Source of the DNA: Mobula hypostoma
Lineage: Eukaryota
Direction: 5' to 3'
Assembly: GCF_963921235.1 (NCBI RefSeq)
Contig: NC_086097.1
Span: 105,836,001 to 105,900,000, forward strand
Length of the DNA stretch: 64,000 nucleotides
In this document: one piece after another, positions 6,001-31,200 of the stretch
Position numbering within the stretch: the first letter of the stretch is position 1
Layout: each line of letters opens with the position of its first letter
Notes under the pieces: model-generated
Told to the model about the DNA's origin: nothing
What the model saw: the letters and a program-made list of their open reading frames with translations, nothing else
Database searches by the model: none
Made by a program: the position numbers and the translations under genes

Positions 6001-9000
6001 GGGAAATTAACCTAAGTTGTTTCCATCAGGTTTGCAGTAAGTTCTTTGGAGTAAAACTCTAATGTATACTATTTGTTTTGTCAAAGCATTGTATGCACTG
6101 AGAAAACTACTTTCTTGTCATGCTGTACAGAGGCATGAAACAACTTTCAAAGAACTCAGAATCATGTGGGAAGCTAGCCTAAGGTGTTTCCATTAGGTAT
6201 GCAGTAAGTAGGTTAGTGTAAAATGGAAATGTATACTATTTGTATTGTCAAAGCTTTGTGTGCACTGAGATAACAACTTTTTTGTCTTGATGTGTAGAGG
6301 AATGAAACAACTTTCAAACTACTCATAATCATGTGGGAAGTTAGCCTGAGCTGTTTCCATTAGGTTTGCAGTAAGTACTTTGGTGTAAAATTGAAATGTA
6401 TTGTCAAAGCTTTGTATGCACTGAGATAACAACTTTTTTGTCTTGATGTGTAGAGGCATGAAACAACTTTCAGACATCTCAGTATCATGTGGGAAGTTAA
6501 CCAAAGGTGTTTCCATTAGGTTTGCAGTAAGTACTATGGAGTAAAATTGAAATGTATACTATTTGTATTGTCCAACCTTTGTTATCACTGAGATAACAAC
6601 TTTTTTGTCTTGATGAGTGGAGGCATGAAACAACTTTCAAACTACTCATAATCATGTGGGAAGTTAACCAAAGGTGTTTCCATTAGATTTGCAGTAAGTA
6701 CTTTGGTGTAAAATTGAAATGTATACTATTTGTATTGTCAAAGCTTTGTATGACTGAGATAACAACTTTTTTGTCTTGATGCGTGGAGGCATGAAACAAC
6801 TTTCAAACTACTCATAATCATGTGGAAAGTTAACCTGAGGTGTTTCCATTAGGTTTGCACTCTGCACTTTGATGTAAAATTGAAATGTATACTACTTGAA
6901 TGTCAGAACATTGTCCGCACTGAGAAAGCAACTTTTTTGTCTTGATGAGCAGAGTCATGAAACAACTTTCAAACTACTCATAATCATGTGGGAAGTTAAC
7001 CAAAGGTGTTTCCATTAGGTTTGCAGTCAGTACTTTGGGGTAAAATTGAAGTACATACTAATTGTATTGTCAAAGGTTTGTACGCACTGAGATAACAATT
7101 TTTTTGTCCTGATGTGTAGAGGCATGAAACAACTTTCAAACTACTCATAATCATGTGGGAAGTTAACCAAAGGTGTTTTCGTTAGGTTTGCATTCAGTAC
7201 TTTGGTGTAAAATTGAAGTGCATACTAATTGTATTGTCAAAGCTTTGTTCGCATTGAGATAACAACTTCTTTGTCTTGATGTGTAGAGGTATGAAGCAAC
7301 TTTCAAACTACTCATAATCATTTGGGAAGTTAACTTAAAATGTTTCCATCAGGTTTACACTCTGCACTTCGGTGGAAAATTGAAATGTATACTACTTGAA
7401 TGTCAGAAGATTGTACACACTGAGAAAGCAACTTTTTTGTCTTGATGAGCAGAGTCATGAAACAACTTTCAAAGTACTCATAATCATGTGGGAAGTTAAC
7501 CAAAGGTGTTTCCATGAGGTTTGCAGTTAGGACTTTGGAGTACAATTGAAATGTATACTACTTTTGCCAAAGCATTTTATTCACTGAGAAATCAAATTTT
7601 ATGTCTTTATGTGCAGAGGCATGAGACAACTTTCAGACATCTCAGAATCATGTGGGAAGTTAACCTAATGTGTTTCCATTAGGTTTGCAGTCAGTACTTT
7701 GGTGTAAAATTGAAGTGCATACTAATTGTATTGTCAAAGCTTTGTATGCACTGAGATAACAACTTTTTTGTCTTGATTTGTAGAGGCATGAAACAACTTT
7801 CAAACTACTCATAATCATGTCAGAAGTTAACTTAAAATGTTTCCATCAGGTTTGCACTCTGCACTTTGATGTAAAATTGAAATGTATTCTACTTGAATGT
7901 CAGAACATTGTATGCACTGAGAAAGCAACTTTTTTGTCTTGATGAGCAGAGGCATGAAACAACTTGGGAATCATGTGGGAAAGTAACTTAAAATGCTTCC
8001 ATCAGGATTTCACTCTGCACTTTGGTTTAAAATTGAAATATATACTATTTGTATTGTCAAAGCTTTGTATGCACTGCGATAACAACTGTTTTGTCTTGAT
8101 GTGTAGAGGCATGAAACCACTTTCAGACATCTCAGAATCATTTGGGAAGTTAACCTAAGGCGTTTCCATTAGGTTTGCAGTAAGTAGTTTGGAATAAAAT
8201 TGAAATGTATACTACTTGTATTGTCAAAGGTTTGTATGCACTGAGACAACAACTTTTTGGTCTAGATGTGCAGAGGCATGAAACAGATTTTAAACTACTC
8301 ATAATCATGTGGGAAGTTAACCTGAGGTGTTTCCATTAGGTTTGCAGTAAGTACTTTGGTGTAAAATTGAAATGTATACTACTTGTACTGTCAAAGCTTT
8401 GTATGCACTGAGGTAACAACTTTTTTGTCTTGTGTGCAGAGGCATGAAACAACTTTCAAAGCACTCAGAATCATGTGGGAAGTTACCCTAAAATGTTTCC
8501 ATCAGGTTTGCACTCTGTACTTTGGTGGAAAATTGAAATGTATACTACTTGAATGTCAGAACATTGCATGCACTGAGAAATCAACTTTTTTGTCTGGATG
8601 AGGAGAGTCATGAAACAACTTTCAAACTACTCATAATCATGTGGGAAGTTAACCAAAGGTGTTTCCATTAGGTTTTCAGTCTAGACTTTTGAGTACAATT
8701 GAAATGTATACTACTTTTGCCAAAGCATTTTATTCACTGAGAAATCATATTTTATGTCTTTATGTGCAGAGGCATGAGACAACTTTCAGACATCTCAGAA
8801 TTATGTGGGAAGTTAACCTAATGTGTTTCCATTAGGTTTACAGTCAGTACTTTGGTGTAAAATTGAAGTGCATACTAATTGTATTGTCAAAGCTTTGTAC
8901 GCACTGAGATAACAACTTTTTTGTCTTGATTTGTAGAGGGATGAAACAACTTTCAAACTACTCATTATCATGTCAGAAGTTAACTTAAAATGTTTCCATC

Positions 9001-12000
9001 AGGTTTGCACTCTGCACTTTGATGTAAAATTGAAATGTATACTACTTGAATGTCAGAACATTGTATGCACTGAGAAAGCAACTTTTTTGTCTTGATGAGC
9101 AGAGGCATGAAACGACTTTCAAAGAATTCAGAATCATGTGGGAAGGTAACTTAAAATGCTTTCATCAGGTTTGCACTCTGCACTTTGGTGTAAAATTGAA
9201 ATTTATACTGTTTGTATTGTCAAAGCTTTGTATGCACTGAGATAACAACTTTTTTGTCTTGATGTGTAGAGGCATGAAATAACTTTCAGACATCTCAGAA
9301 TAACGTGGGAAGTTAACCTAACGTGTTTCCATCAGGTTTGCAGTAAGTACTTTGGTGTAAAATTGAAGTGCATACTAATTGTATTGTCAAAGCTTTGAAC
9401 GCACTCAGATAACAACTTTTTTGTCTTCATGTGCAGAGGCATGAAACAACTTTCAAACTGCTCATAATTATGTGGGAAGTTAACTTGCAGTGTTTCCATC
9501 AGGTTTGCACTCTGTACTTTGGTGGAAAATTGAAATGTATACTACTTCAATGTCGGAACATTGTATGCACTGAGAAAGCAACTTTTTTGTCTTGATGTGT
9601 AGCGGCATGAAACAACTTTCAAACTACTCATAATCATGTGGGAAATTAACCTAAATTGTTTCCATTAGGTTTGCAGTAAGTTCTTTGGAGTAAAGCTCTA
9701 ATGTATACTATTTGTATTGTCAAAGCATTGTATGCACTGAGAAAACTACTTTTTTGTCTTGCTGTACAGAGGCATGAAACAACTTTCAAAGAACTCAGAA
9801 TCATGTGGGAAGTTAACTTACAGTGTTTCCATCAGGTTTGCACTCTATACTTTGGTGGAAAATTGAAATGTATACTACTTCAATGTCGGAACATTGTATG
9901 CACTGAGAAAGCAACTTTTTGTCTTGATGAGCAGAGTCATGAAACAACTTTCAAACTACTCATAATCATGTGGGAAGTTAACCAAAGGTGTTTCCATTAG
10001 GTTTGCAGTAAGTACTTTGGTGTAAAATTGAAATGTATACTATTTGTATTGTCAAAGCTTTGTATGCACTGAGATAACAACTTTTTTGTCTTGATGTGTA
10101 GAGGCATGAAACAACTTTCAAACTGCTCATAATCATGTGGGAGGTTAACTTGAAATGTTTCCATCAGGTTTGCACTCTGCACTTTGGTGGAATTGAAATG
10201 TATACTACTTGAATGTCAGAACATTGTACGCACTGAGAAAGCAACTTTTTTGTCTTCATGAGCAGAGTCATGAAACAACTTTCAAACTACTCATAATCAT
10301 GTGGGACGTTAACCAAAGGTGTTTCCATTAGGTTTGCAGTCAGGACTTTTCAGTACAATTGAAATTTACACTACTTTTGCCAAAGCATTGTATTCACTGA
10401 GAAATCAAGTTTTATGTCTTTATGTGCAGAGGCATGAAACAACTTTCAGACATCTCAGAATCGTGTGGGAAGTTAACCTAATGTGTTTCCATTAGGGTTG
10501 CAGTCAGTACTTTGAGGTAAAATTGAAGTGCATACTAATTGTTTTGTCAAAGGTTTGTACGCACTGAGATAACAACTTTTTTGTCCTGATGTGTAGAGGC
10601 ATGAAACAACTTTCAAACTACTCATAATCATGTGGGACGTTAACCTGAGGTGTTTCCATTATGTTTGCAGTAAGTACTTAGGTGTAAAATTGAAGTGCAT
10701 ACTAATTGTATTGTCAAAGGTTTGTACGCACTGAGATAACAACTTTTTTGTCTTGATTTTTAGAGGGATGAAACAACTTTCAAACTACTCATAATCATGT
10801 CAGAAGTTAACTTAAAATGTTTCCATCAGGTTTGCACTCTGCACTTTGATGTAAAATTGAAATGTATACTACTTTAATGTCAGAACATTGTATGCACTGA
10901 GAAAGCAACCTTTTTGTCTTGATGAGCAGAGGCATGAAAGGACTTTCAAAGAACACAGAATCATGTGGGTAGGTAACTTAAAATGCTTCCATCAGGTTTG
11001 CACTCTGCACTTTGGTGTAAAATTGAAATGTATACTATTTGTATTGTCAAAGCTATGTATGCACTGAGATAACAACTTTTTTGTCTTGATGTGTAGAGGG
11101 ATGAAACAAATTTCAGACATTTCAAATCATGTGGGAAGTTAACCTAAGGTGTTTCCATCAGGTTTGCAGTAAGTACTTTGGTGTAAAATTGAAGTGCATA
11201 CTAATTGTATTATCAAAGCTTTGAACGCTCTCAGATAACTACGTTTTTCTCTTGATGTGCAGAGGCATGAAACAACTTTCAAACTACTCATAATCATGTG
11301 GGAAGTTAACTTACAGTGTTTCCATCAGGTTTGCACTCTGTACTTTGGTGGAAAATTGAAATGTATACTACTTCAATGTCGGAACATTGTATGCACTGAG
11401 AAAGCAACTTTTTTGTCTTGATGAGCAGAGTCATGAAACAACTTTAAAACTACTTATTTTCATGTGGGAAGTTATCAAAGGTGTTTCCATTAGGTTTGCA
11501 CTCAGGACTTTTGAGTACAATTGAAATGCAGACTACTTTTATGTCAAAGGATTGTATTCACTAAGAAAACAACTTTTTTGTCTTGCTGTGCAGAGGCATG
11601 AAACAACTTTCAAACTACTCATAATCATGTGGGAAATTAACCTAAATTGTTTCCATTAGGTTTGCAGTAAGTTCTTTGGAGTAAAGCTCTAACGTATACT
11701 ATTTGTATTGTCAAAGCATTGTATGCACTGAGAGAACTACTTTTTTGTCTTGCTGTACAGAGGCATGAAACAACTTTCAAAGAACTCAGAATCATGTGGG
11801 AAGTTAACTTAAAATGTTTCCATTAGGTTTGCACTCTGCACTTCGGTGGAAAATTGAACTGTATACTACTTGAATGTCAGAACATTGTATGCACTGAGAA
11901 AGCAACTTTTTCGTCTTGATGAGCAGAGTCATGAAACAACTTTCAAACTAGTCAGTATCATGTGGGAAGTTAACCTCAGTTGTTTTCATTAGGTTTGCAG

Positions 12001-13177
12001 TCAGGACTATTGAGTACAATTGAAATGTATACAACTTTAATGTCAGAACTTTGTATGCACTGAGAAAGCAACTGTTTTGTCTGGATGTGTAGAGGCATGA
12101 AACAACTTTAAAACTACTCATAATCATGTGGGAAGTTAACCAAAGGTGTTTCCATTAGGTTTGCAGTCAGGACTTTTCAGTACAATTGAAATGTACACTA
12201 CTTTTGCCACAGCATTGTATTCACTGAGATATCAAGTTTTATGTCTTTATGTGCAGAGGCATGATACAACTTTCAGACATCTCAGGATCATGTGGGAAGT
12301 CAACCTAATGTTTTTCCATTAGGTTTGCAGTCAGTACTTTGGGGTAAAATTGAAGTACATACTGATTGTATTGTCAAATGTTTGTACGCACTGAGATAAC
12401 AACTTTTTTGTCCTGATGTGTAGAGGCATGAAACAACTTTCAAACTACTCATAATCATGTGGGAAGTTAACCTGAGGTGTTTCCATTAGGTTTGCTGTAA
12501 GTACTTAGGTGTAAAATTGAAGTGCATACTAATTGTATTGTCAAAGCTTTGTTCGCACTGAGATAACAACTTTTTTGTCTTGATGTGTAGAGGTATGAAG
12601 CAACTTTCAAACTACTCATAATCATTTGGGAATTTTACTTAAAATGTTTCCATCAGGTTTGCACTCTACACTTTGGTGGAAAATTGAAATGTATACTACT
12701 TGAATGTCAGAACATTGTATGCACTGAGAAAGCAACTTTTTTGTCTGCATGAGTAGAGTCATGAAACAACTTTCAAAGTACTCATAATCATGTGGGAAGT
12801 TAACCTAGGGTGTTTCCATTAGGTTTGCAGTAAGTACTTTGGTGTCAAATTGAAATGTATACTATTTGTATTGTCAAAGCTTTGTATGCACTGAGAAAAC
12901 AACTTTTTTGTGTTTATGTGCAGAGGCATGAAACAACTTTCATACTACTCATAATCATGTGGGAAGTTAACTTAAAAGGTTTCCATCAGATTTGCGCTCT
13001 GCACTTTGGCGTAAAATTGAAATGCATACTACTTGAATGTCAGAACATTGTATGCACTGAGAAAGCAACTTTGTTGTCTTGATGAGCAGAGTCATGAAAC
13101 AACTTTCAAACTACTCATAATCATGTGGGAAGTTAACCAACTGTGTTTCCACTAGTTTGCAGTCAGGACTTTTGAGT
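1..13177 (+). repeat. Satellite array, subfamily A, ~166-167-bp monomer (roughly 70 monomers); runs off the left edge of the window; interrupted by a CR1 at 2174-3276
   Basis: The anchor ACTGA recurs at 31, 198, 363, 529 and 696 (period 165-167). Typical monomer: actgagataacaacttttttgtcttgatgtgtagaggcatgaaacaactttcaaactactcataatcatgtgggaagttaacctaaggtgtttccattaggtttgcagtaagtactttggtgtaaaattgaaatgtatactatttgtattgtcaaagctttgtatgc. Confidence 0.97.
2174..3276 (-). mobile_element. CR1-clade non-LTR retrotransposon (HER1-like), 5'-truncated, copy 1; ORF2 frameshifted
   Basis: Minus-strand ORFs carry the RT motifs GVPQGSVLGP and FADD and a CR1 C-terminus (RTRGHSL...FFTQRVV). The 3' UTR and a (TTTCTATG)-type tail end at 2174. 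Near-identical to 14335-15440, with a 1-bp deletion at ~2615 relative to that copy. Confidence 0.96.
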
Positions 13178-13886
13178 TCGCAAACATCTCAGAATCATTC
13201 ATGGAATATGTTAAGATGTTTGCATCAGGTTTGCCGTCAGTGCATTTGAGTAAAATGGAAATGTATACTTGATTCAATGACAATGCTCTGCATGCACTGA
13301 GAAATCAACTTTTTTATCTTGAATACCTGAGTGATATAACAGGTGTCAAACATCCCAGGATCAGGTGGGGAGTAATGTTAAGATGTTTCCATAAGGTTTG
13401 CAGTCAATACTTTAGAGTAAAATTGAAATATTTACTTTTAGTGCCAATGCACTGCATGCATTGAGAAATCAACTTTTTTTGTCTTGAATAGCTGACTGAT
13501 ATAACAGGTGTCAAACATCATAGGATCATGTGGGGGGTTATATTAACATGTTTCCATAAGGTTTGCAGTCAGTACCTTTGAGTAAAATTAAAATGTATAC
13601 TTGATTCAATGCCAAAGCTCTGCATGCACTGAGAATTCAACTTTTAAATCTTGAATACCTGAGTGATATAACAGGTGTCAAACATCTCAGGATCATGTGG
13701 GGAATTATGTTAAGATGTTTCCATTAGGTTTGCAGTTAGTACTATTGAGTAAAATTGAAATATATACAACTTTTAATGCCATACCATTGTCTGCACAGAG
13801 ATATCAACTTTTTAATCTTTAATACCTGAGTGATATAACAGGTGTCAAACATCTCAGGATAATGTGGGGAGTTATGTTAAGATGTT

Positions 13887-15347
13887 ATGTTAAGAGTGCT
13901 TAAGGAAGTAGCCCAAGAAATAGTGGATGCATTAGTGATAATTTTTCAAAACTCGTTAGATTCTGGACTAGTTCCTGAGGATTGGAGGGTGGCTAATGTA
14001 ACCCCACTTTTTAAAAAAGGAGGGAGAGAGAAACCGGGGAATTATAGGCCGGTTAGCCTAACGTCAGTGGTGGGGAAACTGCTGGAGTCAGTTATCAAGG
14101 ATGTGATAACAGCACATTTGGAAAGCGGTGAAATGATTGGACAAAGTCAGCATGGATTTGTGAAAGGAAAATCATGTCTGACGAATCTCATAGAATTTTT
14201 TGAGGATGTAACTAGTAGAGTGGATAGGGGAGAACCAGTGGATGTGGTATATTTGGATTTTCAAAAGGCTTTTGACAAGGTCCCACACAGGAGATTAGTG
14301 TGCAAACTTAAAGCACACGGTATTGGGGGTAAGGTATTGGTGTGGGTGGAGAATTGGTTAGCAGACAGGAAGCAAAGAGTGGGAATAAACGGGACCTTTT
14401 CAGAATGGCAGGCGGTGACTAGTGGGGTACCGCAAGGCTCAGTGCTGGGACCCCAGTTGTTTACAATATATATTAATGACTTGGATGAGGGAATTAAATG
14501 CAGCATCTCCAAGTTTGCGGATGACACGAAGCTGGGTGGCAGTGTTAGCAGTGAGGAGGATGCTAAGAGGATGCAGGGTGACTTGGATAGGTTGGGTGAG
14601 TGGGCAAACTCATGGCAGATGCAATTTAATGTGGATAAATGTGAAGTTATCCACTTTGGTGGCAAAAATAGGAAAACAGATTATTATCTGAATGGTGGCC
14701 GATTAGGAAAAGGGGAGGTGCAACGAGACCTGGGTGTCATTATACACCAGTCATTGAAAGTGGGCATGCAGGTACAGCAGGCGGTGAAAAAGGCGAACGG
14801 TATGCTGGCATTTATAGCGAGAGGATTCGAGTACAGGAGCAGGGAGGTACTACTGCAGTTGTACAAGGCCTTGGTGAGACCACACCTGGAGTATTGTGTG
14901 CAGTTTTGGTCTCCTAATCTGAGGAAAGACATCTTTGTCATAGAGGGAGTACAAAGAAGGTTCACCAGATTGATTCCTGGGATGGCAGGTCTTTCATATG
15001 AAGAAAGACTGGATGAACTGGGCTTGTACTCGTTGGAATTTAGAAGATTGAGGGGGGATCTGATTGAAACGTATATGATCCTAAAGGGATTGGACAGGCT
15101 AGATACGGGAAGATTGTTCCCAATGTCGGGGAGGTCCAGAACGAGGGGTCACAGTTTGAGGATAGAGGGGAAGCCTTTTAGGACCGAGATTAGGAAAAAC
15201 TTCTTCACACAGAAAGTGGTGAATCTGTGGAATTCTCTGCCACAGCAAACTGTTGAGGCCAGTTCATTGGCTATGTTTAAGAGGGAGTTAGATATGGCCC
15301 TTGTGGCTACAGGGGTCAGGGGGTATGGAGGGAAGGCTGGGTTCTGA
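13887..15347 (+). CDS. Uninterrupted 486-aa ORF: CR1 ORF2 reverse transcriptase domain and C-terminus, with no endonuclease; the ATG comes from satellite-derived junction sequence
   Basis: Motifs NYRPVSLTSVVGK, QHGF..GKSCLTNL, YLDFQKAFDKVPH, GVPQGSVLGP, FADD, RDLGV and RPHLEYC, with no stop or frameshift. Expression is unknown. Confidence 0.85.
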   Translation: MLRVLKEVAQEIVDALVIIFQNSLDSGLVPEDWRVANVTPLFKKGGREKPGNYRPVSLTSVVGKLLESVIKDVITAHLESGEMIGQSQHGFVKGKSCLTNLIEFFEDVTSRVDRGEPVDVVYLDFQKAFDKVPHRRLVCKLKAHGIGGKVLVWVENWLADRKQRVGINGTFSEWQAVTSGVPQGSVLGPQLFTIYINDLDEGIKCSISKFADDTKLGGSVSSEEDAKRMQGDLDRLGEWANSWQMQFNVDKCEVIHFGGKNRKTDYYLNGGRLGKGEVQRDLGVIIHQSLKVGMQVQQAVKKANGMLAFIARGFEYRSREVLLQLYKALVRPHLEYCVQFWSPNLRKDIFVIEGVQRRFTRLIPGMAGLSYEERLDELGLYSLEFRRLRGDLIETYMILKGLDRLDTGRLFPMSGRSRTRGHSLRIEGKPFRTEIRKNFFTQKVVNLWNSLPQQTVEASSLAMFKRELDMALVATGVRGYGGKAGF

Positions 15348-15456
15348 GTTGGATGATCAGCCATGATCATAATAAATGGCGGTGCAGGCTCGAAGGGCCG
15401 AATGGCCTACTCCTGCACCTATTTTCTATGTTTCTATGTTTCTATGTTTCTATGTT
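13893..15456 (+). mobile_element. CR1-clade non-LTR retrotransposon (HER1-like), 5'-truncated, copy 2
   Basis: Begins in ORF2 just upstream of the RT domain (RVLKEVAQEIVDAL), runs to the native stop at 15347, then a short 3' UTR with a stem-loop and four TTTCTATG tail units merging into satellite. Confidence 0.97.
15381..15419 (+). other. CR1 3' UTR stem-loop (putative RT recognition element)
   Basis: GGTGCAGG (15381-15388) pairs with CCTGCACC (15412-15419), enclosing the inner hairpin GGCC-GAAT-GGCC. Present in all three young copies. A conserved 3' stem-loop before a tandem-repeat tail is established for CR1/L2-type LINEs and their partner SINEs. Confidence 0.8.
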
Positions 15457-18400
15457 TCCATTAGGTTTGCAGTAAGTACTTTGGTGTAAAATTGAAATGT
15501 ATACAACTTTTAATGCCATAGCACTGTCTGCACTGAGATATCAACTTTTTTCTCTTGAAGAGCTGAGTGATATAACAGGTGTCAAACATCTCAGAATCAT
15601 GTGGGGAGTTATATTAAGATGTTTCCATAAGGTTTGCATTCAGTACTTTAGAGTAAAATTGAAATATATACTTTTGATGCCAAAGCACTGTATGCACTGA
15701 GAAATCAACTTTTTTGTCTTGAATACCTAAGTGATATAACAGGTCTCAAACATCTCAGGATCATTTAGGGAATATGTTAAGATGTTTGCATCAGGTTTGC
15801 AGTCAGTGCCTTTGAGTAAAATGGAAATGTATACTTGATTCAATGCCAATGCACTGCATGCACTGAGAAATCAACTTTTTTATCTTGAATACCTGAGTGA
15901 TATAACAGGTGTCAAACAACCCAGGATCATGTGGGGAGTTATGTTAAGATGTTTCCATTAGGTTTGCAGTCAGTACTATTGACTAAAATTGAAATAAATA
16001 CTGAACTTAATAACAAAGCACTGCATGCACTGAGAAAACAACTTCTTTGTCTTGAATAGCAGAGTGATATAACAGGTGTCAAACATCTCAGAATCATGTG
16101 GGGAGTTATATTAAGATGTTTACATAAGGTTTGCAGTCAGTACTTTAGAGTAAAATTGAAATATATACTTCTTTCAATGCCAAAGCACTGCATGCACTGA
16201 GAAATCAACTTTTTTGTCTTGAATATCTGAGTGATATAACAGGTGTCAAACATCTCAGGATCATGTGGAGAAGTTACATTAAGATGTTTCCATAAGGTTT
16301 GCAGTCAGAACCTTTGAGTAAAATTGAAATGTATACTTCTTTCAATGCCAAAGCACTGTATGCACTGAGAAATCAACTTTTTTATCTTGAATACCTGAGT
16401 GATATAACAGGTCTCAAACATCTCAGAATCATGTGGGGAGTTATATTAAGATGTTTCCATAAGGTTTGCATTCAGAACTTTAGAGTAAAATTGAAATATA
16501 TACTTTTAATGCCAAAGCACTGCATGCACTGAGAAATCAACTTTTTTGTCTTGAATAGCTGAGTGATATAACAGGTGTCAAACATCTCAGGATCATGTGG
16601 GAAGTTATGTTAAGATGTTTCCATTAGGTTTGCAGTCAGTACTATTGAGTAAAATTGAAATACATACTTAGCTGAATAACAAAGCACTGCATGCACTGTG
16701 AAATCAACTTTTTTATCTTGAAGAGCAGAGTGATATAACAGGTGTCAAACATCATAGGATCATGTGGGGAGTTATATTAAGATGTTTCCATAAGGTTTGC
16801 AGTCAGTACCTTTGAGTAAAATTGAAATGTATACTTGATTCAATGCCAAAGCACTACATGCACTGAGAAATCAACTTTTTTATCTTGAATACCTGAGTGA
16901 TATAACAGGTGTCAAACATCTCAGGATCATGTGGGGAGTTATGTTAAGATGTTTCCATAAGGTTTGCAGTCAGTACTATTGAGTAAAATTGAAATACATA
17001 CACCTTTTAATGCCAAAGCACTGTCTGCACTGAGATATCAACTTTTTTATCTTGAAGAGCTGAGTGATATAACAGGTGTCAAACATCTCAGAATCATGTG
17101 GGGAATTATATTAAGATGTTTCCATAAGGTTTGCAGTCAGTACCTTTGAGTAAAATTGAAATGTATACTTGATTCAATGCCAATGCACTGCATGCACTGA
17201 GAAATCAACTTTTTTATCTTGAATAGCTGAGTGATATAACAGGTGTCAAACATCTCAGAATCATGTGGGGAGTTATATTAAGATGTTTCCATAATGATTG
17301 CATTCAGTACTATTGAGTAAAATTGAAATACATACTTCTTTTAATGCCAAAGCACTGTATGCACTGAGAAATCAACTTTTTTATCTTGAATAGCAGAGTG
17401 ATATAACAGGTGTCAAACATCTCAGGATCATGTGGGGAGTTATGTTAAGATGTTTCCATAAGGTTTGCAGTCAGTACCTTTGAGTAAAATTGAAATGTAT
17501 GCTTCTTTGAATGCCAAATCACAGTATGCACTGAGAATTCAACTTATTAATCTTGAAGAACTGAGTGATATAACAGGTGTCAAACATCTCAGAATCATGT
17601 GGGGAGTTATATTAAGATGTTTCCATAAGGTTTGCATTCAGTACTTTTGAGTAAAATTGAAATATATACTTCTTTCAATGCCAAAGCACTGTATGCACTG
17701 AGAAATCAACTTTTTTGTCTTGAATAGCTGAGTGATATAACAGGTGTCAAACATCTCAGAATCATGTGGGGAGTTATGTTAAGATGTTTCCATCAGGTTT
17801 GCATTCAGTACTATTGAGTAAAATTGAAATGTATACTTCTTTCAATGCCAAAGCACTGTATGCACTGAGAAATCAACGTTTTTATCTTGAATAGCTAAGT
17901 GATATAGCAGGTGTGAAACATCTCAGAATCATCTGGGGAGTTATGTTAAGATGTTTCCATTAGGTTTGCAGTCAGTACTTTTCAGTAAAATTGAAATACA
18001 TACTTCTTTCAATAAGAAAGCACTGCATGCACTGAGAAATCAACTTTTTTATCTTGAATAGCAGAGTGATATAACAGGTGCCAAACAGCTCACAATCATC
18101 GGGGGAGTTATGTTAATATGTTTCCATCAGGTTTGCTGTCAGTACCTTTCAGTAAAATTGAAATGTATACTTCTTTCAATGCCAAAGCACTGTATGCACT
18201 GAGAAATCAACTTTTTTATCTTGAATAGCTGAGTGATATAACAGGTGTCAAACATCTCAGAATCATGTGGGGAGTTATGTTAAGATGTTTCCATAAGGTT
18301 TGCAGTCAGTACTATTGAGTAAAATTGAAATACATACTTCTTTTAATGCCAAAGCACTGTATGCACTGAGAAATCAACTTTTTTATCTTGAATAGCTAAG

Positions 18401-19126
18401 TGATATAACAGGTGTCAAACATCTCAGAATCATGTGGGGAGTTATGTTAAGATGTTTCCATCAGGTTTGCAGTCAGTACCTTTGAGTAAAATTGAAATGT
18501 ATACTTCTTTCAATGCCAAAGCACTGTATGCACTGAGAAATCAACTTTTTTATCTTGAATAGCTGAGTGATATAACAGGTGTCAAACATCTCAGAATCAT
18601 GTGGGGAGTTATGTTAAGATGTTTCCATCAGGTTTGCAGTCAGTACCTTTGAGTAAAATTGAAATGTATACTTCTTTCAATGCCAAAGCACTGCATGCAC
18701 TGAGAAATCAACTTTTTTATCTTGAATAGCTAAGTGATATAACAGCTGTCAAACATCTCAGAATCATGTGGGGAGTTATGTTAAGATGTTTTCATAAGGT
18801 TTGCATTCAGTACTTTAGAGTAAAATTGAAATATATACTTTTAATGCCAAAGCACTGTAAGCAAAGAGAAATCAACTTTTTTTTATCTTGAATAGCTAAG
18901 TGATATAACAGGTGTCAAACATCTCAGAATCATGTGGGGAGTTATGTTAAGATGTTTCCATCAGGTTTGCATTCAGTACTTTTGAGTAAATTGGAAATGT
19001 ATACTTGATTCAATGCCAATGCATGCATGCACTGAGAAATCAACTTTTTTATCTTGAATACCTGAGTGATATAACAGGTGTCAAACATCTCTGATCATGT
19101 GGGGAGTTATGTTACGATGTTTTATG

Positions 19127-19294
19127 GAAACATAGAAACATAGAAAATAAGTGCAGGATTAGGCCATTCGGCCCTTCGATCCTGCACCGCCATTTATTAT
19201 GATCATGGCTGATCATCCAACTCAGACCGCCGCCCCAGCCTTCCCTCCATACCCCCTGACCCCCGTAGCCAAAAGGGCCATATCTAACTCCCTC
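19127..19294 (-). mobile_element. CR1 copy 3, ~170-bp 3'-terminal fragment of the same family
   Basis: Matches 2174-2332 and the reverse complement of ~15281-15445: last ORF2 codons, 3' UTR stem-loop and tail GAAACATAGAAACATAGAAAA. Confidence 0.95.
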
Positions 19295-22200
19295 ATTAGG
19301 TTTGCAGTCAGTACTATAGAGTAAATTTGAAATGCATACATAGCTTAATAACAAAGCACTGCATGCACTGAGATATCAACTTTTTTATCTTGAATAGCTG
19401 AGTGATACAACAGCTGTAAAACATCTGAGAATCATGTGGGGAGTTATATTAATATGTTTCCTTAAGGTTGGCAGTCAGTACCTTTGAGTAAAATTAAAAT
19501 GTATACTTGATTCAATGCCAAAGCTCTGCATGCACTGAGAATTCAACTTTTAAATCTTGAATACCTGAGTGATATAACAGGTGTCAAAGATCTCAGGATC
19601 ATGTGGGGAGTTATGTTAAGATGTTTCCATTAGGTTTGCAGTCAGTACTATTGAGCAAAATTGAAATACATACTTATCTGAATAAGAAAGCACTGCATGC
19701 ACTGAGAAATCAACTGTTTTATCTTGAATAGCTGAGTGATATACAGGTGTCAAACATCATAGGATCATGTGGGGAGTTATATTAAGATGTTTCCATAAGG
19801 TTTGCAGTCACTAACTTTGAGTAAATTTAAAATACATACACCATTTACACCATAGAAATGTCTGCACTGAGAGATCAACTTCTTTATCTTGAAGAGCTGA
19901 GTGATATAACAGGTGTCAAACATCCTAGAATCATGTGGGGAATTATATTAAGATGTTTCCATAAGGTTTGCAGTCAGGTACTTTTGAGTAAAATTGAAAT
20001 GTATACTTCTTTCAATGCCAAAGCACTGTATGCACTGAGAAATCCACTTTTTTATCTTGAATATCTAAGTGCTATAACAGGTGTCAAACATCCTAGGATC
20101 ATGTGGGGATGTTATATTAAGATGTTTCCATAAGGTTTGCAGTCAGTACCTCAGAGTAAAATTAAAATGTATACTTGGTTGAATGCCAATGCACTGCATG
20201 CACTGAGAAACCAACTCTTTTATCTTGAATAGCATGTCATCTAGCAAGAGAAATCAATGAATACTAAATATAACAGGTGTCAAACATCTCAGAATCATGT
20301 GGGGAGTTATGTTAAGATGTTTCCATCAGCTTTGCAGTCAGTACTTTTGAGTAAAATTGAAAAGTATACTTCCGTGGATGTCAAATCACTGTATGCACTG
20401 AGAAATCAACTTTTTTATCTTGAATAGCTAAGTGATATAACAGGTGTCAAACATCTCAGAATCATCTGGCGAGTGATGTTAAGATGTTTCCATCAGGTTT
20501 GCATTCAGTACTTTAGAGTAAAATTGAAATATATACTTTTAATGCCAAAGCACTGTATGCACTGAGAAATCAACTTTTTTATCTTGAATAGCTAAGTGAT
20601 ATAACAGGTGTCAAACATCTCAGAATCATGTGGGGAGTTATGTTAAGATGTTTCCATCAGGTTTGCAGTCAGTACTTTTGAGTAAAATTGAAATGTATAC
20701 TTCTTTCAATGCCAATGCACTGTATGCACTGAGAAATCAACTTTTTTATCTTGAATAGCTAAGTGATATAACAGGTGTCAAACATCTCAGAATCATGTGG
20801 GGAGTTATGTTAAGATGTTTCCATAAGGTTTGCATTCAGTACTATTGAGTAAAATTGAAATATATACTTTTATGCCAAAGCACTGTATGCACTGAGAAAT
20901 CAACTTTTTTATCTTGAATAGCTAGTGATATAACAGGTGTCAAACATCTCAGAATCATGTGGGGAGTTATGTTAAGATGTTTCCATCAGGTTTGCAGTCA
21001 GTACTTTTGAGTAAAATTGAAATGTACGCTTCTTTCAATGCCAAAGCACTGTATGCACTGAGAAATCAACTTCTTTATCTTGAAGAGCTAAGTGATATAA
21101 CAGGTGTCAAACATCTCAGAATCATGTGGGGAAATATATTAAGATGTTTCCATAAGGTTTGCATTCAGTACTATTGAGTAAAATTGAAATGTACGCTTCT
21201 TTCAATACTAAAGCACTGTATGCACTGAGAAATCAACTTTTTTCATCTTGAAGAGCCTAGTGATATAACAGGTGTCAAACATCTCAGAATCATGTGGGGA
21301 GTGATGTTAATATGTTTGCATCAGGATTGCAGTCAGTACTGTTAAGTAAAATTGAAAAGTATACTTCTTTCAATGCCAATGCACTGTATGCACTGAGAAA
21401 TCAACTTTTTTATCTTGAATAGCTAAGTGATATAACAGGTGTCAAACATCTCAGAATCATGTGGGGAGTTATGTTAAGATGTTTCCATCAGGTTTGCAGT
21501 CAGTACCTATGAGTAAAATTGAAATGTATACTTCTTTCAATGCCAGTGCACTGTATGCACTGAGAAATCAACTTTTTTATCTTGAATAGCTAAGTGATAT
21601 AACAGGTGCCAAACAGCTCAGAATCATGTGGGGAGTTATGTTAAGATGTTTCCATCAGGTTTGCAGTCAGTACCTTTGAGTAAAATTGAAATGTATACTT
21701 CTTTCAATGCCAATGCACTGTATGCACTGAGAAATCAACTTTTTTATCTTGAATAGCAAAGTGATATAACAGGTGTCAAACAGCTCAGAATCATGTGGGG
21801 AGTTATATTAAGATGTTTCCATAAGGATTGCATTCAGTACTATTGAGTAAAATTGAAATACATACTTCTTTTAATGCCAAAGCACTGTATGCACTGAGAA
21901 ATTAACTTTTTTATCTTGAATAGCTAAGTGATATAACAGGTGTCATACATCTCAAAATCATGTGTGGAGTGATGTTAACATGTTTCCTTCCTGTTTTCAT
22001 TCAGTACTTTTGAGTAAAATTGAAAAGTATACTTCTTTTAATGCCAAAGCACTCTATGCACTGAGAAATCAACTTTTTTATCTTGAATAGCTAAGTGATA
22101 TAACAGGTGTCAAACAGCTCAGAATCATGTGGGGAGTTATGTTAAGATGTTTCCATCAGGTTTGCAGTCAGTACCTTTGAGTAAAATTGAAATGTATACT

Positions 22201-25200
22201 TCTTTCAATGCCAAAGCACTGTAAGCACTGAGAAATCTACTTATTTATCTTGAATAGCTGAGTGATGTAACAGGTCTCAAACAACTCAGGCTCATATGGG
22301 GAGTTATGTTAAGATGTTTCCTTCAGGTTTGCATTCAGTACTTTTTAGTAAAATTGAAATGTATACCTGATTCAATGCCAAAGCACTGCATGCAGTGAGA
22401 AATCAACTTTTTTATCTTGAACCCCTGAGTGATATAACAGGTGTCAAACATCTCAGAATCATGTGGGGAATTATATTAAGATGGTTCCATAAGGTTTGCA
22501 TTCAGAAGTGTAGAGTAAAATTGAAATATATACTTTTAATGCCAAAGCACTGTATGCACTGAGAAATCAACTTTTTGTCTTGAATACCTAAGTGATATAA
22601 CAGTTGTCAAACATCTCAGAATCATGTGGGGATTATGTTAAGATGTTTCCATCAGGTTTGCAGTCAGTACCTTTGAGTAAAATTGAAATGTATACTTGAT
22701 TCAATGCCAATGCACTGAATGCACTGAGAAATCAACTTTTTTATCTTGAATACCTGAGTGATATAACAGGTGTCAAACATCTCAGAATCATGTGGGGAGT
22801 TATGTTAAGATGTTTCCATAAGGTTTGCAGTCAGTACTTTGAGTAAAATTGAAATGTATACTTGTTCAATGCCAATGCACTGCATGCACTGAGAAATCAA
22901 CTTTTTTATCTTGAATAGCTGAGTGATATAACAGGTGTCAAACATCTCAGAATCATGTGGGGAGTTATACTAAGATGTTTCCATAAGGTTTGCAGTCAGT
23001 ACTTTGAGTAAAATTGAAATATATACTTCTTTAATGCCAAAGCACTGCATGCACTGAGAAATCAACTTTTTTGTCTTGAATAGCTAAGTGATATAACAGG
23101 TCTTAAACAACTCAGTATCATTTGGGGAGTTACGTTAAGATATTCCCATCAGGTTTGCATTCAGTACTTTTGAGTAAAATTGAAATACATACTTCTTAAT
23201 GCCAAAGCACTGCATGCACTGAGAAATCAACTTTTTTATCTTGAATAGCTAAGTGATATAACAGCTCTCAAACATCTCAGAATCATGTGGGGAGTTATAT
23301 TAAGATGTTTCCATAAGGTTTGCAGTCAGTAGTTTTGAGTAAAATTGAAATGATACTTCTTTCAATGCCAAAGCACTGTATGCACTGAGAAATCAACTTT
23401 TTTATCTTGAATAGCTAAGTGATATAACAGGTGTCAAACATCTCAGAATCATGTGGGGAGTTATGTTAAGATGTTTCCATTAGGTTTGCAGTCAGTAGTT
23501 TTGAGTAAAATTGAAATGTGCAGTCTTTCAATTCCAATGCTCTGTCTGCACTGAGAATTCTACTTTTTTATCTTGAAGAGCTGAGCGATGTAACAGGTGT
23601 CAAACATCTCAGATTAATGTGGGGAGTGATGTTAGGATATTTCCATCAGGTTTGCATTCAGTACTATTGAGTAAAATTGAAATATATTTCTTTTAATGCC
23701 AAAGCACTGTATGCACTGAGAAATCAACTTTTTTATCTTGAATAGCTAAGTGATATAACAGGTGTCAAACATCTCAGAATCATGTGGGGAGTTATGTTAA
23801 GATGTTTCCATTAGGTTTGCAGTCAGTACCTTTGAGTAAAATTGAAATGTATATTTCTTTCAATGCCAATGCACTGTATGCACTGAGAAATCAACTTTTT
23901 TATCTTGAATAGCCAAGTGATATAACAGTTCTCAGACAACTCAGAATCATATGAGGAGTTATAATAAGATGTTTGCCATAAGGTTTGCATCAGTAGTTTA
24001 GAGTAAAATTGAAATATATATTTCCTTTAATGCCAAAGCACTGTATGCACTGAGAAATCAACTTTTTTATCTTGAATACCTAAGTGATATAACAGGTGTC
24101 AAACATCTCAGAATCATGTGGGGAGTTATGTTAAGATGTTTCCATCAGGTTTGCAGTCAGTAGTTTTGAGTAAAATTGAAATGTATATTTCTTTCAATGC
24201 TAATGCACTGATGCGCTAAGAAATAACTTTTTTTATCTTGAATACCTTCGTGATATAACAGGTGTCAAACATCTCAGAATCATGTGGGGAATTATGTTAT
24301 GATGTTTCCATCAGGTTTGCAGTCAGTACCTATGAGTAAAATTGAAAAGTATACTTCTTTCAATGCCAAAACACTGTATGCACTGAGAAATCAACTTTTT
24401 CTCTTGAATACCTAAGTGATATAACAGGTCTCAAACATCTCAGAATCATGTGGGGAGTTATGTTAAGATGTTTCCATCAGGTTTGCAGTCAGTACTTTTG
24501 AGTAAAATTGAAATGCATACTTCTTTCAATGCCATGCACTGTATGCACTGAGAAATCAACTTTTTTATCTTGAATACCTGACTGATATAACAGGTGTCAA
24601 ACATCTCAGGATCATGTGGGGAGTTATGTTAAGATGTTTCCATCAGGTTTGCAGTCAGTAGTTTTGAGTAAAATTGAAATGTATACTTCTTTCAATGCCA
24701 ATGCACTGTATGCACTGAGAAATCAACTTTTTTATCTTGAATAGCTAAGTGATATAACAGGTGTCAAACATCTCAGGATCATGTGGGGAGTTATGTTAAG
24801 ATGTTTCCATAAGGTTTGCAGTCAGTAGCTTTGAGTAAAATTGAAATGTATACTTTTCAATGCCAATGCACTGCATGCACAGAGAAATCAACTTTTTTGT
24901 CTTGAATACCTGAGTGATATAACAGGTGTCAAACATCTCAGGATCATGTGGGGAGTTATGTTAAGATGTTTCCATCAGGTTTGCAGTCAGTACCTTTGAG
25001 TAAAATTGAAATGTATACATCTTTCAATGCCAGTACACTGTATGCATGAGAAATCAACTTTTTTGTCTTGATTATCTGAGTGATATAGCAGGTGTCAAAC
25101 ATCTCAGAATCATGTGGGGAGTTATGTTAAGATGTTTGCATTAGGTTTGCAGTCAGTACTTTTGAGTAAAATTGAAATTTATTCTTGTTTCAATGCCAAA

Positions 25201-28200
25201 GCAGTGTATGCAATGAGAAATCAACTTTTTTGTCTTTAATATCAAAGTGATATAACAGGTGTCAAACATCTCAGAATCATATGTGGAGTTATGTTATGAT
25301 GTTTCCATCAGGTTTGCATTCAGTACTTTAGAGTAAGATTGAAATATATACTTCTTTCAATGCCAAAGCACTGTATGCACTGAGAAATCAACTTTTTTAT
25401 CTTGAATAGCTAAGTGATATAGCAGGTGTGAAACATCTCAGAATCATCTGGGGAGTTATGTTAAGATGTTTCCATTAGGTTTGCAGTCAGTACTTTTCAG
25501 TAAAATTGAAATGTATACTTCTTTCAATGCCAATGCACTGTATGCACTGAGAAATCAACTTTTTTATCTTGAATAGTAAGTGATATAACAGGTGTCAAAC
25601 ATCTCAGAATCATGTGGGGAGTTATGTTAAGATGTTTCCATTAAGTTTGCAGTAAGTAGTTTTGAGTAAAATTGAAATGTATGCTTCTTTCAATGCCAAA
25701 GCACTGTATGCACTGAGAAATCAACTTTTTTTATCTTGAATAGCTAAGTGATATAACAGGTGTCAAACATCTCAGAATCATGTGGGGAGTTATGTTAAGA
25801 TGTTTCCATCAGGTTTGCAGTCAGTACCTTTGAGTAAAATTGAAATGTATACTTCTTTCAATGCCAATGCACTGTATGCACTGAGAAATCAACTTTTTTA
25901 TCTTGAATAGCTAAGTGATATAACAGGTGTCAAACATCTCAGAATCATGTGGGGAGTTATGTTAAGATGTTTCCATCAGGTTTGCAGTCAGTACTATGGA
26001 GCAAATTTGAAATGTATACTTCTTTCAATGCCAATGCACTGTATGCCCTGAGATATCAACTTCTTTGTCTTGAAGAGCTGAGTGATATAACAGGTGTCAA
26101 ACATCTCAGATTCATGTGGGGAGTGATGTTAAGATGTTTCCATCAGGTTTGCATTCAGTACTATTGAGTAAAATTGAAATACATACTTCTTTTAATGCCA
26201 AAGCACTGTATGCACTGAGAAATCAACTTTTTTATCTTGAATAGCTAAGTGATATAACAGGTGTCAAACATCTCAGAATCATGTGGGGAGTTATGTTAAG
26301 ATGTTTCCATCAGGTTTGCAGTCAGTACCTTTGAGTAAAATTGAAATGTATACTTCTTTCAATGCCAATGCACTGTATGCACTGAGAAATCAACGTTTTT
26401 ATCTTGAATAGCTAAGTGATATAACAGGTGTCAAACATCTCAGAATCATGTGGGGAGTTATGTTAAGATGTTTCCATAAGGTTTGCATTCAGTACTATTG
26501 AGTAAAATTGAAATATATACTTCTTTCAATGCCAAAGCACTGTATGCACTGAGAAATCAACTTTTTTATCTTGAATAGCTAAGTGATATAACAGGTGCCA
26601 AACAGCTCAGAATCATGTGGGGAGTTATGTTAAGATGTTTCCATCAGGTTTGCAGTCAGTACTTTTGAGTAAAATTCAAATGTATACTTCTTTCAATAAC
26701 AAAACACTGCATGCAATGAGAAATCAACTTTTTTGTCTTGATTATCTGAGTGATATAACAGGTGTCAAACATCTCAGAATCATGTGGGGAGTTATATTAA
26801 GATATTTCCATCAGGTTTGCAGTCAGTACTTTTGAGTAAAATTGAAATATACTTCTTTCAATGCCAATGCACTGTATGCACTGAGAAATCAACTTTTTTA
26901 TCTTGAATAGCTAAGTGATATAACAGGTGTCAAACATCTCAGAATCATGTGGGGAGTTATATTAAGATGTTTCCATCAGGTTTGCAGTCAGTACTTTTGA
27001 GTAAAATTGAAATCATACTTCTTTCAATGCCAATGCACTGTATGCACTGAGAAATCAACTTTTTTATCTTGAATAGCTAAGTGATATAACAGGTCTCAAA
27101 CATCTCAGAATCATGTGGGGAGTTATATTAAGATGTTTCCATCAGGTTTGCAGTCAGTACTTTTGAGTAAAATTGAAATGTATACTTCTTTCAATGCCAA
27201 AGCACTGTATGCACTGAGAAATCAACTTTTTTATCTTGAATAGCTAAGTGATATAACAGGTGTCAAACATCTCAGAATCATGTGGGGAGTTATGTTAAGA
27301 TGTTTCCATCAGGTTTGCAGTCAGTACTTTTGAGTAAAATTGAAATGTATACTTCTTTCAATGCCAATGCACTGTATGCACTGAGAAATCAACTTTTTTA
27401 TCTTGAATAGCAAGTGATATAACAGGTGTCAAACATCTCAGAATCATGTGGGGAGTTATGTTAAGATGTTTCCATCAGGTTTGCATTCAGTACTTTAGAG
27501 TAAAATTGAAATATATACTTCTTTCAATGCCAAAGCACTGTATGCACTGAGAAATCAACTTTTTTATCTTGAATAGCTAAGTGATATAACAGGTGTCAAA
27601 CATCTCAGAATCATGTGGGGAGTTATGTTAAGATGTTTCCATCAGGTTTGCAGTCAGTACTTTGAGTAAAATTGAAATGTATACTTCTTTCAATGCCAAA
27701 GCACTGTATGCACTGAGAAATCAACTTTTTTATCTTGAATAGCTAAGTGATATAACAGGTGTCAAACATCTCAGAATCATGTGGGGAGTTATGTTAAGAT
27801 GTTTCCATCAGGTTTGCAGTCAGTACCTTTGAGTAAAATTGAAATGTATACTTCTTTCAATGCCATTGCACTGTATGCACTGAGAAATCAACTTTTTTAT
27901 CTTGAATAGCTAAGTGATATAACAGGTGTCAAACATCTCAGAATCATGTGGGGAGTTATATTAAGATATTTCCATCAGGTTTGCAGTCAGTACTTTTGAG
28001 TAAAATTAAAATGTATACTTCTTAGAATGTCAAAGCACTGTAAGCACTGAGAAATCTACTTATTTATCTTGAATAGCAAAGTGATATAACAGGTGTCAAA
28101 CAGCTCAGAATCTGGTGGGGAGTTAAATTAAGATGTTTCCATAATGATTGCATTCAGTACTATTGAGTAAAATTGAAATGTATACTTCTTTCAATGCCAA

Positions 28201-31200
28201 AGCACTCTAAGCACTGAGAAATCAACTTTTTCATCTTGAACAGCTAAGTGATATAACAGGTGTCAAACATCTCAGAATCATGTGGGGAGTGATGTTAATA
28301 TGTTTGCATCAGGATTGCAGTCAGTACTGTTAAGTGAAATTGAATTGTATATTTCTTTCTATGTCAATGCACTGCATGCTCTGAGAAATCAACTTTTTTA
28401 TCTTGAATAGCTAAGTGATATAACAGGTGTCAAACATCTCAGAATCATGTGGGGAGTTATGTTAAGATGTTTCCATAAGGTTTGCATTCAGTACTATTGA
28501 GTAAAATTGAAATACATACTTCTTTCAATGCCAAAGCACTGTATGCACTGAGAAATCAACTTTTTTATCTTGAATAGCTAAGTGATATAACAGGTGTCAA
28601 ACATCTCAGAATCATGTGGGGAGTTATGTTAAGATGTTTCCATCAGGTTTGCAGTCAGTACTTTTGAGTAAAATTGAAATGTATGCTTCTTTCAATGCCA
28701 AAGCACTGTATGCATGGAGAAATCAACTTTTTTATCTTGAAGAGCTAAGTGATATAACAGGTGTGAAATATCTCAGAATCATGTGAGGAGTTTTGTTAAG
28801 ATGTTTCCATCAGGTTTGCAGTCAGTACCTTTGAGTAAAATTGAAGTGTATACTTCTTTCAATGCTAAGCACTGTATGCACTGAGAAATCAACTTTTTTA
28901 TCTTGAATAGCTAAGTGATATAACAGGTGTCAAACATCTCAGAATCATGTGGGGAGTTATGTTAAGATGTTTCCATCAGGTTTGCAGTCAGTAGTTTTGA
29001 GTAAAATTGAAATGTATACTTCTTTCAATGCCAATGCACTGTATGCACTGAGAAATCAACTTTTTTATCTTGAATAGCTAAGTGATATAACAGGTGTCAA
29101 ACATCTCAGAATCATGTGGGGAGTTATATTAAGATGTTTCCATCAGGTTTGCATTCAGTACTATGGAGTAAAATTGAAATACATTTTTCTTTCAATGCCA
29201 AAGCACTGTATGCACTGAGAAATCAACTTTTTTATCTTGAAGAACTGAGTGATATAACAGGTGTCAAACATCTCAGAATCATGTGGGGAGTTATGTTAAG
29301 ATGTTTCCATCAGGTTTGCAGTCAGTACCTTTGAGTAAAATTGAAATGTATACTTCTTTCAATGCCAATGCACTGTATGCACTGAGATATCAACGTTTTT
29401 TATCTTGAACAGCTAAGTGATATAACAGGTGCCAAACAGCTCAGAATCATGTGGGGAGTTATGTTAAGATGTTTCCATCAGGTTTGCAGTCAGTACCTTT
29501 GAGTAAAATTGAAATGTATGCTTCTTTCAATGCCAAATCACAGTATGCACTGTGAAATCAACTTTTTTTAATCTTGAATAGCTGAGTGATATAACAGCTG
29601 TCAAACATCTCAGAATCATGTGGGGAGTTATGTTAAGATGTTTCCATCAGGTTTGCAGTCAGTACTTTGGAGTAAAATTGAAATGTATTCTTCTTTCAAT
29701 GCTAATGCAGTGTATGCACTGAGAAATCAAATTTTTTATCTTGAATAGCAAAGTGATATAACTGGTGTCAAACAGCTCAGAATCATGTGGGGAGTTATGT
29801 TAAGATGTTTCCATCAGGTTTGCATTCAGTACTATTGAGTAAAATTGAAATAGATACTTCTTTCAATGCCAAAGCACTGTAAGCCCTGAGAAATCAACTT
29901 TTTTATCTTGAACAGCTAAGTGATATAACAGATGTCATACATCTCAGATTCATGTGGGGAGTGATGTTAAGATGTTTCCTTCAGGTTTGCAGTCAGTACT
30001 TTTGAGTAAAATTGAAATGTATACTTCTTTCAATGCCAATGCACTGTATGCACTGAGATATCAACTTCTTTGTCTTGAAGAGCTGAGTGATATAACAGGT
30101 GTCAAACATCTCAGATTCATGTGGGGAGTGATGTTAAGATGTTTCCATCAGGTTTGCATTCAGTACTATTAGAGTAAAATTGAAATATATACTTCTTTCA
30201 ATGCCAATGCACTGTATGCACTGAGAAATCAACTTTTTTATCTTGAATAGTTAAATGATATAACAGGTGTCAAACATCTCAGAATCATGTGGGGAGTTAT
30301 GTTAAGATGTTTCCATCAGGTTTGCAGTCAGTACTTTTGAGTAAAATTGAAATGTATACTTCTTTCAATGCCAATGCACTGTATGCACTGAGAAATCAAC
30401 TTTTTTATCTTGAATAGCTAAGTGATATAACAGGTGTCAAACAGCTCAGAATCATGTGGGGAGTTATGTTAAGATGTTTCCATCAGGTTTGCAGTCAGTA
30501 CCTTTGAGTAAAATTGAAATGTATACTTCTTTCAATGCCAAAGCACTGTATGCACTGAGAAATCAACTTTTTTATCTTGAATAGCTAAGTGATATAACAG
30601 GTGTCAAACAGCTCAGAATCATGTGGGGAGTTATGTTAAGATGTTTCCATCAGGTTTGCAGTCAGTACCTTTGAGTAAAATTGAAATGTATACTTCTTTC
30701 AATGCCAATGCACTGTATGCACTGAGAAATCAACTTTTTTATCTTGAATAGCTAAGTGATATAACAGGTCTCAAACATCTCAGAATCATGTGGGGAGTTA
30801 TGTTAAGATGTTTCCTTCAGGTTTGCATTCAGTACTTTTTAGTAAATTTGAAATATATACTTCTTTTAATGCCAAAGCACTGTATGCACTGAGAAATCAA
30901 CTTTTTTATTTTGAATAGCTAAGTTATATAATAGGTGTCAAACATCTCAGAATCATGTGGGGAGTTATGTTAAGATGTTTCCATCAGCTTTGCAGTCAGT
31001 ACCTTTGAGTAAAATTGAAATGTATACTTCTTTCAATGCCAATGCACTGTATGCACTGAGAAATCAACTTTTTTATCTTGAATAGCTAAGTGATATAACA
31101 GGTGTCAAACATCTCAGAATCATGTGGGGAGTTATGTTAAGATGTTTCCATCAGGTTTGCAGTCAGTACCTTTGAGTAAAATTGAAATGTATACTTCTTT

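Follow-up and report, generated by a model that had tools for sequence, protein, structure and literature searches.

Two separate CR1-type insertions at the best tail-matching position of a 167-bp satellite in Mobula hypostoma

Introduction

In the zebrafish, about 80% of the 3' junctions of ZfL2-2, a long interspersed nuclear element (LINE), carry microhomology (PMC2666801), in agreement with the remark in an initial annotation of the DNA studied here that CR1/L2-type LINEs often show it. It is also known that the target duplications of CR1/L2 elements peak at 3–5 bp, and that the extra bases at their 5' ends derive from the flanks (PMC4245944). Here we describe three copies of a CR1-type LINE within a 167-bp satellite array of Mobula hypostoma, two of which, designated copies 2 and 3, interrupt the satellite monomer at the same position. 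The stretch of 64,000 nt that was analysed (assembly GCF_963921235.1, contig NC_086097.1, positions 105,836,001 to 105,900,000 of the forward strand) is called the window.

Copy 2 resembles the zebrafish elements ZfL2-1 and ZfL2-2 (PMC2666801, PMC4245944, PMC4760211) in its overlap with the target, its duplication of about 5 bp, its 5' truncation and its flank-templated bases, and the short target truncation at copy 1 is also like those of the zebrafish L2/CR1-type LINEs. Tail-target microhomology is already known in CR1/L2 elements, and the basic event is ordinary. On the other hand, the overlap motif of the present locus recurs in every satellite monomer, and the inverted flank-like bases at the 3' junction of copy 3 have no counterpart in the accessible descriptions of the zebrafish LINEs. 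The amniote CR1 elements with a 3' hairpin and an octamer microsatellite (PMC4316615) are alike in the reverse transcriptase (RT), the octamer tail and the strong 5' truncation, but both the octamer and the host differ.

For copy 3, the target alterations of L1 provide a comparison. The targets of L1 are subject to local inversion, inverted duplication and hairpin ligation, and their ends may self-anneal, be hairpin-ligated or be inverted (PMC11702581). Those cases are from human, cultured cells and mostly concern kb-scale foldbacks or the reciprocal end, whereas copy 3 has a 10-nt inverted target before the tail of a fully antisense 167-nt insert. Repeated hits at one position of a multicopy repeat are shared with the target-specific non-LTR retrotransposons (which lack long terminal repeats), i.e., the Tx1 clade, the R1 clade and restriction-like endonuclease (RLE) groups such as Utopia and YURE (PMC4640811). 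These families put most of their copies at the target, whereas the family described here is dispersed and one of its three local copies is off-site. A literature search, largely confined to papers outside subscription, retrieved nothing about this satellite or about satellite-phased CR1 insertions.

Results and Discussion

Copies 2 and 3 interrupt the monomer at its best match to the LINE tail

The 167-bp satellite fills positions 1–56571 of the window (56.6 kb, about 322 monomers) in two subtypes. Only three large interruptions are present inside the array. All belong to one LINE family and lie within its first 31%: copy 1 spanning 2174–3277 (minus strand), copy 2 spanning 13887–15451 (plus strand) and copy 3 spanning 19123–19293 (minus strand). 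Positions in the monomer are given as phases, phase 1 being the A of ATGTTTC. The satellite subtypes and the LINE copies are as follows.

1..13180, plus strand: satellite subtype A, the consensus being 81% similar to that of subtype B; approximate boundary
13181..56571, plus strand: satellite subtype B, in which copies 2 and 3 reside
2174..3277, minus strand: CR1-type copy 1, 5'-truncated and frameshifted; at phase 74/82, with a 7-nt target deletion (phases 75–81 lost) and no tail overlap
13893..15458, plus strand: CR1-type copy 2, truncated at its 5' end; open frame up to the stop at 15345–15347, predicted hairpin in the 3' untranslated region (UTR), octamer tail at 15419–15458
19127..19293, minus strand: CR1-type copy 3, last 167 nt of the LINE, without the 6-bp deletion described below; 1-nt overlap (C) with the satellite at the 5' junction

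Copies 2 and 3 break the monomer at phases 5–8, within 1–2 nt of each other (copy 2 after phase 5, copy 3 after phase 6). The junction coordinates and the common monomer position in the initial annotation were correct, as was its placing of copy 1 at a different site.

The decamer at phases 1–10, hereafter the pad, is the best tail match of the monomer, with 9 of 10 nt identical to the tail repeat (TTTCTATG)n. In a duplex-energy proxy, phase 1 in the sense orientation ranked first among 334 strand-positions for pairing with the tail; its mean energy was -8.3 kcal/mol, whereas the best unrelated site reached -4.3 kcal/mol (approximated by RNA parameters and calculated on every fourth of 115 regular monomers). 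The mimicry of the LINE tail by the shared site, which had been annotated from a shorter match, was thus borne out. ATGTTTC was found in 159 of 198 regular monomers of subtype B, and ATGTTTCCAT at 174 of 225 anchored sites of this subtype. In subtype A, 11 of 67 regular monomers have the exact ATGTTTC at phase 1, and 53 of 67 have TGTTTC. The whole array contains 187 exact target decamers. The presence of a tail match in the monomer needs no special explanation, because shuffled monomers often have one: a match of at least 7 nt was obtained in 1184 of 5000 shuffles, and a 9/10 match in 366 of 3000.

The probability that some pair among three insertions falls within ±1 nt is 0.054, and that for exactly the same position is 0.018. 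When the site is named beforehand, the probability of at least two of three insertions in a 3-nt window is 0.00096, and in a 7-nt window 0.005. Naming the site beforehand is fair, since 3' microhomology has been published for related LINEs and the site is the best tail match of the monomer.

Two general properties of the site were considered and rejected. Special constraint on the pad is not apparent, as its conservation ranks 62 of 167 windows. A generic fragile site is not apparent either: in the alignment of irregular monomer intervals, the eight indel-bearing ones break at phases 37, 47–48 (five times), 113–119 and 130, and none at 1–10.

A preference of the endonuclease for a motif or DNA shape, with the likeness to the tail being secondary, would also bring two insertions to one site. 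The putative top-strand breaks, after phase 5 and after phase 6, are separated by 1 nt. The minority variant CATTA is present in both interrupted monomers (15459–15463 and 19294–19298); tail pairing does not explain it, and it might hint at a nick preference. Elsewhere it is found at 5 of 34 local sites and 19 of 198 sites array-wide (post hoc p of 0.02 and 0.009). However, copy 1 has no such motif, the endonuclease domain lies outside these truncated copies, and the flanks of LINE tails in sequencing runs are mixed (consensus agreement 0.42). In addition, reports of target-specific families concern the early-branched, Tx1 and R1 groups (PMC4640811). We regard this explanation as quite improbable.

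Copies 2 and 3 are separate insertions

Copies 2 and 3 are separate insertions in unrelated monomers. The two host monomers are 85.7% alike, no closer than typical pairs, and each is 91–92% like other monomers. Copies 1 and 2 are 97.9% identical over 1108 nt and share a 6-bp deletion (19227–19228 by copy 3), whereas copy 3 lacks this deletion and has an identity of 92.4% with copy 2. Its private divergence is 5 in 160 (about 3%).

Contigs from public sequencing runs were also used. Four of the 24 listed runs were taken, X1 and X2 being one sample, which may be that of the window; run X21, with 20 reads only, all less than 90% alike, was left out. Of the material from the runs, 15 out of 34 joints were considered, together with 20 of 662 loose-end rows and 24 of about 46,370 pieces. 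Rare or single-copy junctions could not be counted on contigs this short, and depth was not taken as copy number. The 6-bp deletion accounts for about 7% of depth in organism A (X1, X2) and is absent from organism B (X5), so that it marks a young subfamily; both organisms have the satellite.

Descent of all same-site copies from one insertion amplified with the satellite, an alternative named in the initial annotation, was checked and does not hold, because the copies differ in subfamily and the host monomers are unrelated. Moreover, the longer copy carries the derived deletion, and the orientations are opposite. No listed contig spans copy 3, as would be the case for a misassembly. The chance that either common descent or a misassembled copy 3 accounts for the shared site is, in our judgement, negligible.

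Copy 2 shows an ordinary insertion

The satellite stops at ATGTT (13882–13886) to the left of copy 2 and continues from 15459. On the right, the tail ends with ATGTTTC (15452–15458), which is also the satellite's own sequence and gives a 3' overlap of 7 nt, as had been annotated. The features around this copy are listed here.

13882..13886, plus strand: left copy ATGTT of a likely 5-bp target duplication, whose right copy (15452–15456) is also tail sequence, so that its length is ambiguous
13887..13895, plus strand: 9 extra nt identical to the flank 13874–13882, making a 13-nt unit repeated 1.9 times at 13871–13895
15452..15461, plus strand: target decamer, phases 1–10; 7 nt common with the tail and a 9/10 match to the tail repeat

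The final three of the extra nucleotides, AGA, also encode the conserved Arg of an RT motif, and they may represent a 3-nt microhomology at the 5' junction. With its 7-nt overlap, a duplication of about 5 bp and flank-templated 5' bases, copy 2 is an ordinary insertion, since duplications of 3–5 bp and flank-derived 5' bases have been described for CR1/L2-type elements. The 9/10 match, the 9-nt flank-templated insert and the inverted target at copy 3 described below had not been noticed in the initial annotation.

Copy 3 has an inverted target at its tail

At copy 3, ATGTTT (19117–19122) is followed by the antisense LINE to 19293, and the satellite continues from 19294. The left junction has two parts.

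19117..19123, plus strand: left flank, phases 1–6, plus one T where the satellite has C; T at phase 7 is found at 4 of 225 other sites, one of them at 18788
19124..19133, minus strand: inverted copy of target phases 1–10, overlapping the tail end; 1 base off the plain tail, or 2 when 19123 is counted

Reverse complementation of 19124–19133 yields the exact target decamer, and the tail, read in the LINE sense, runs into CAT as in copy 2. An antisense copy is unable to pair with the pad, because the top strand has the sequence of the tail RNA itself and not its complement, a point that the initial annotation did not consider. For copy 3, the earlier view of the pad as a landing site consequently fails in its original form; it would be rescued for this copy only by a flip. 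Two later substitutions at the named sites of copy 3 would have a probability of at most about 0.001, given its private divergence. It is likely, judging from these two bases, that copy 3 was primed on the same strand as copy 2 and then flipped. Canonical antisense priming on the 3-nt ATG with CAT duplication was rejected by inspection, as three changes within 6 nt would be required.

We consider it probable that a dispersed CR1-type LINE inserted independently, as copy 2 and as copy 3, at the best tail-matching position, with both copies likely primed there by pairing of tail and target and copy 3 likely flipped. This explanation builds on three observations, namely the sequences of the junctions, the independence of the two copies and the rank of phases 1–10 as the best pairing site. 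A nick made by the endonuclease in the bottom strand, immediately before phase 1, would release a 3' end that pairs with the tail RNA (7 bp, or 10 with one G-U wobble) and primes reverse transcription. For copy 2, a top-strand cut 5 nt downstream would yield the 5-bp duplication, and the free end would slip back by 13 nt, copy 9 nt of the flank and join the cDNA by the 3-nt microhomology. At copy 3, the cDNA and its primer strand, the same as for copy 2, would be joined to the top-strand end, resulting in an antisense insert headed by the inverted target; hairpin or flap inversion, or copying of the flank followed by a jump to the RNA, could produce such a joint. A bias within the monomer would be expected from this process, without raised insertion density in the array and without targeting by the family. 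The inverted target at the tail of copy 3 is the sole unusual feature, a single and unconfirmed event.

Several points weigh against this explanation. The number of insertions is three, and the 95% interval for two of three at the pad is 9–99%, or 1–91% with copy 3 left out. Copy 1, which shares the young subfamily of copy 2, lies at phase 74/82 without overlap. A nick preference of the endonuclease would look the same as pairing. The flip of copy 3 depends on two bases, one of which is readable as the satellite variant with T at phase 7, in a copy with about 3% private changes. With 19123 included, the stub corresponds to the CATAA variant of the monomer, yet the flank resumes as CATTA. In the short contigs of the public runs, none of those listed spans the copy 3 stretch, and no LINE-satellite joint was found among the 15 of 34 joints considered, which are all satellite-to-satellite; the junction of copy 2 itself, expected as a strand change, is likewise not among them, so that this is no proof of absence.

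The main rival explanation is coincidence. Copy 2 would have been primed by microhomology, and copy 3 would be a blunt antisense chance hit in a monomer with T at phase 7, followed by one transition in the tail. In its favour, the chance of a pair within ±1 nt is 0.054, or 0.10 with the array-end element included as a fourth; the phase-7 variant exists, copy 3 has private changes, and copy 1 shows that overlap-free insertions happen. Conversely, coincidence requires a hit in the pad, a rare variant and a transition that by chance restores the target decamer exactly, and we consider it unlikely.

Copy 3 might otherwise be a templated patch at the DNA level, i.e., a break filled by inverted copying of a CR1 3' end that sits in sense orientation at a CATAA-type pad. 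The match of the stub to the CATAA variant (18 of 34 local sites) agrees with this, as do the overlaps of merely 1 nt at each end of copy 3. However, the window with its three copies contains no donor, the break at the same phase is left unexplained, and a second sense insertion at a pad is still implied. A patch of this kind is very unlikely.

The array and sequencing runs do not support a satellite sink

A phased sink, as proposed in the initial annotation, would gather the family above its genome density through a pad in every monomer; the 187 exact decamers in about 322 monomers and the two of three copies at the pad are in its favour. The array itself gives this no support, as only three insertions are present in 56.6 kb, copy 1 is elsewhere, and the 37 kb after copy 3 (19294–56571) are without LINE insertion and contain 153 intact, unused decamers. 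In the runs, 102 tail-bearing contigs of X1 and 75 of X5 leave the tail into mixed non-satellite DNA, and the 15 of 34 joints considered are all satellite-to-satellite. Past the tail, the loose ends had a consensus agreement of 0.42 and a median of 255 nt, and nothing in the satellite stretch matched (20 of 662 rows). Contigs reaching 19294 from the left (83, 90 and 76 in X1, X2 and X5, respectively) have the satellite consensus. A true phased sink is hardly credible.

The properties of target-specific families were not found. Most copies are not at one target sequence, copy 1 being off-site and the tail flanks being mixed, and neither a fixed orientation nor an exact common 3' junction was seen; copies 2 and 3 are opposite as assembled and would be concordant only after a flip. 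The data argue against a family that lands mostly in the satellite, and a modest phased excess at the pad is neither shown nor excluded by the short contigs. Viral contigs, metagenome contigs and prokaryote genomes were scanned for the pattern of the LINE 3' end and yielded 0 loci.

In a bolder version, which is conceivable but doubtful, a strong phased hotspot would take a large share of the CR1 insertions in arrays genome-wide, and copy 3 would be a frozen flipped intermediate. If so, some antisense LINE insertions would record sense-strand priming, and arrays would be a natural assay, with many near-identical targets, of the influence of tail pairing on CR1. A genome-wide peak would allow pairing and nicking in CR1 site choice to be measured on a tail-mimic satellite, and would warn that same-site insertions in arrays can be independent. 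If the flipped copy recurred, the retrotransposition model would gain a further outcome of repair. At present, three insertions make up the whole case.

The LINE belongs to a CR1-like family

The frame of copy 2 matches RVT_1 (E 3.9e-34). In the best 120 of 5222 longer homologues, RT proteins of birds or turtles predominate, with about 50–57% identity, and among the matches listed, RT or apurinic endonuclease-RT (APE-RT) proteins of stork, crane and turtle are for the most part 50–57% identical to the RT of copy 2. The tail is a period-8 repeat with 5.1 copies of the unit at 15419–15458, and the same unit terminates copies 1 and 3. CR1 is the dominant LINE in the amniote hosts of those RT relatives (PMC4316615). 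Taken together, the RVT_1 match, the bird and turtle relatives and the octamer tail fit CR1, a label taken from its dominance in bird and turtle hosts and from the octamer tail, as the homologue entries themselves carry no CR1 label. The target alterations, with at most 5 bp duplicated at copy 2 (overlapping the tail), 7 nt lost at copy 1 and 0–1 nt lost at copy 3, also fit the short duplication (3–5 bp) or short truncation of CR1.

All three copies are truncated downstream of the endonuclease region. Among the matches listed, the closest longer homologues, P0029 (71%) and P0040 (67%), carry PF03372 and PF14529. A stem-loop in the 3' UTR before the tail was predicted in both the minimum free energy (MFE) and centroid structures, with z = -0.96 and 36 of 200 shuffles folding as well. 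A search of 12500–20500 against Rfam gave no match.

Other features of the array and its flank

At about 12977–13216, subtype A gives way abruptly to subtype B; about 92 nt are deleted at the junction, and copy 2 lies four monomers downstream. The monomers of subtype B are most uniform at 25–45 kb (95–96% to the consensus) and most diverged at both ends (89–91%), as is expected from turnover in the middle of an array. Deletions of 11–22 nt repeatedly start at phase 47–48 in both subtypes (782–938, 6351–6507, 31810–31956 and 32960–33258), and some of them are probably copies of one event. At 20122–20317, a monomer of 195 bp contains about 28 inserted nt that are partly like a neighbouring satellite segment.

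The array ends abruptly near phase 39 and is followed by 7.4 kb of other DNA, which includes older retroelement fragments. A purine-rich element at 56572–58100 is other than the CR1 family described here. Decayed older CR1-like pieces of open reading frame 2 (ORF2) are located beyond it, with an endonuclease region at 58211–58893 (plus strand) beside a downstream piece at 59249–58912 (minus strand), possibly a 5' inversion. A 56-bp tandem duplication at 61297–61411 lies upstream of a decayed element at 61700–63380, the frames of which resemble, by eye and without a Pfam match, a non-LTR endonuclease and the start of an RT.

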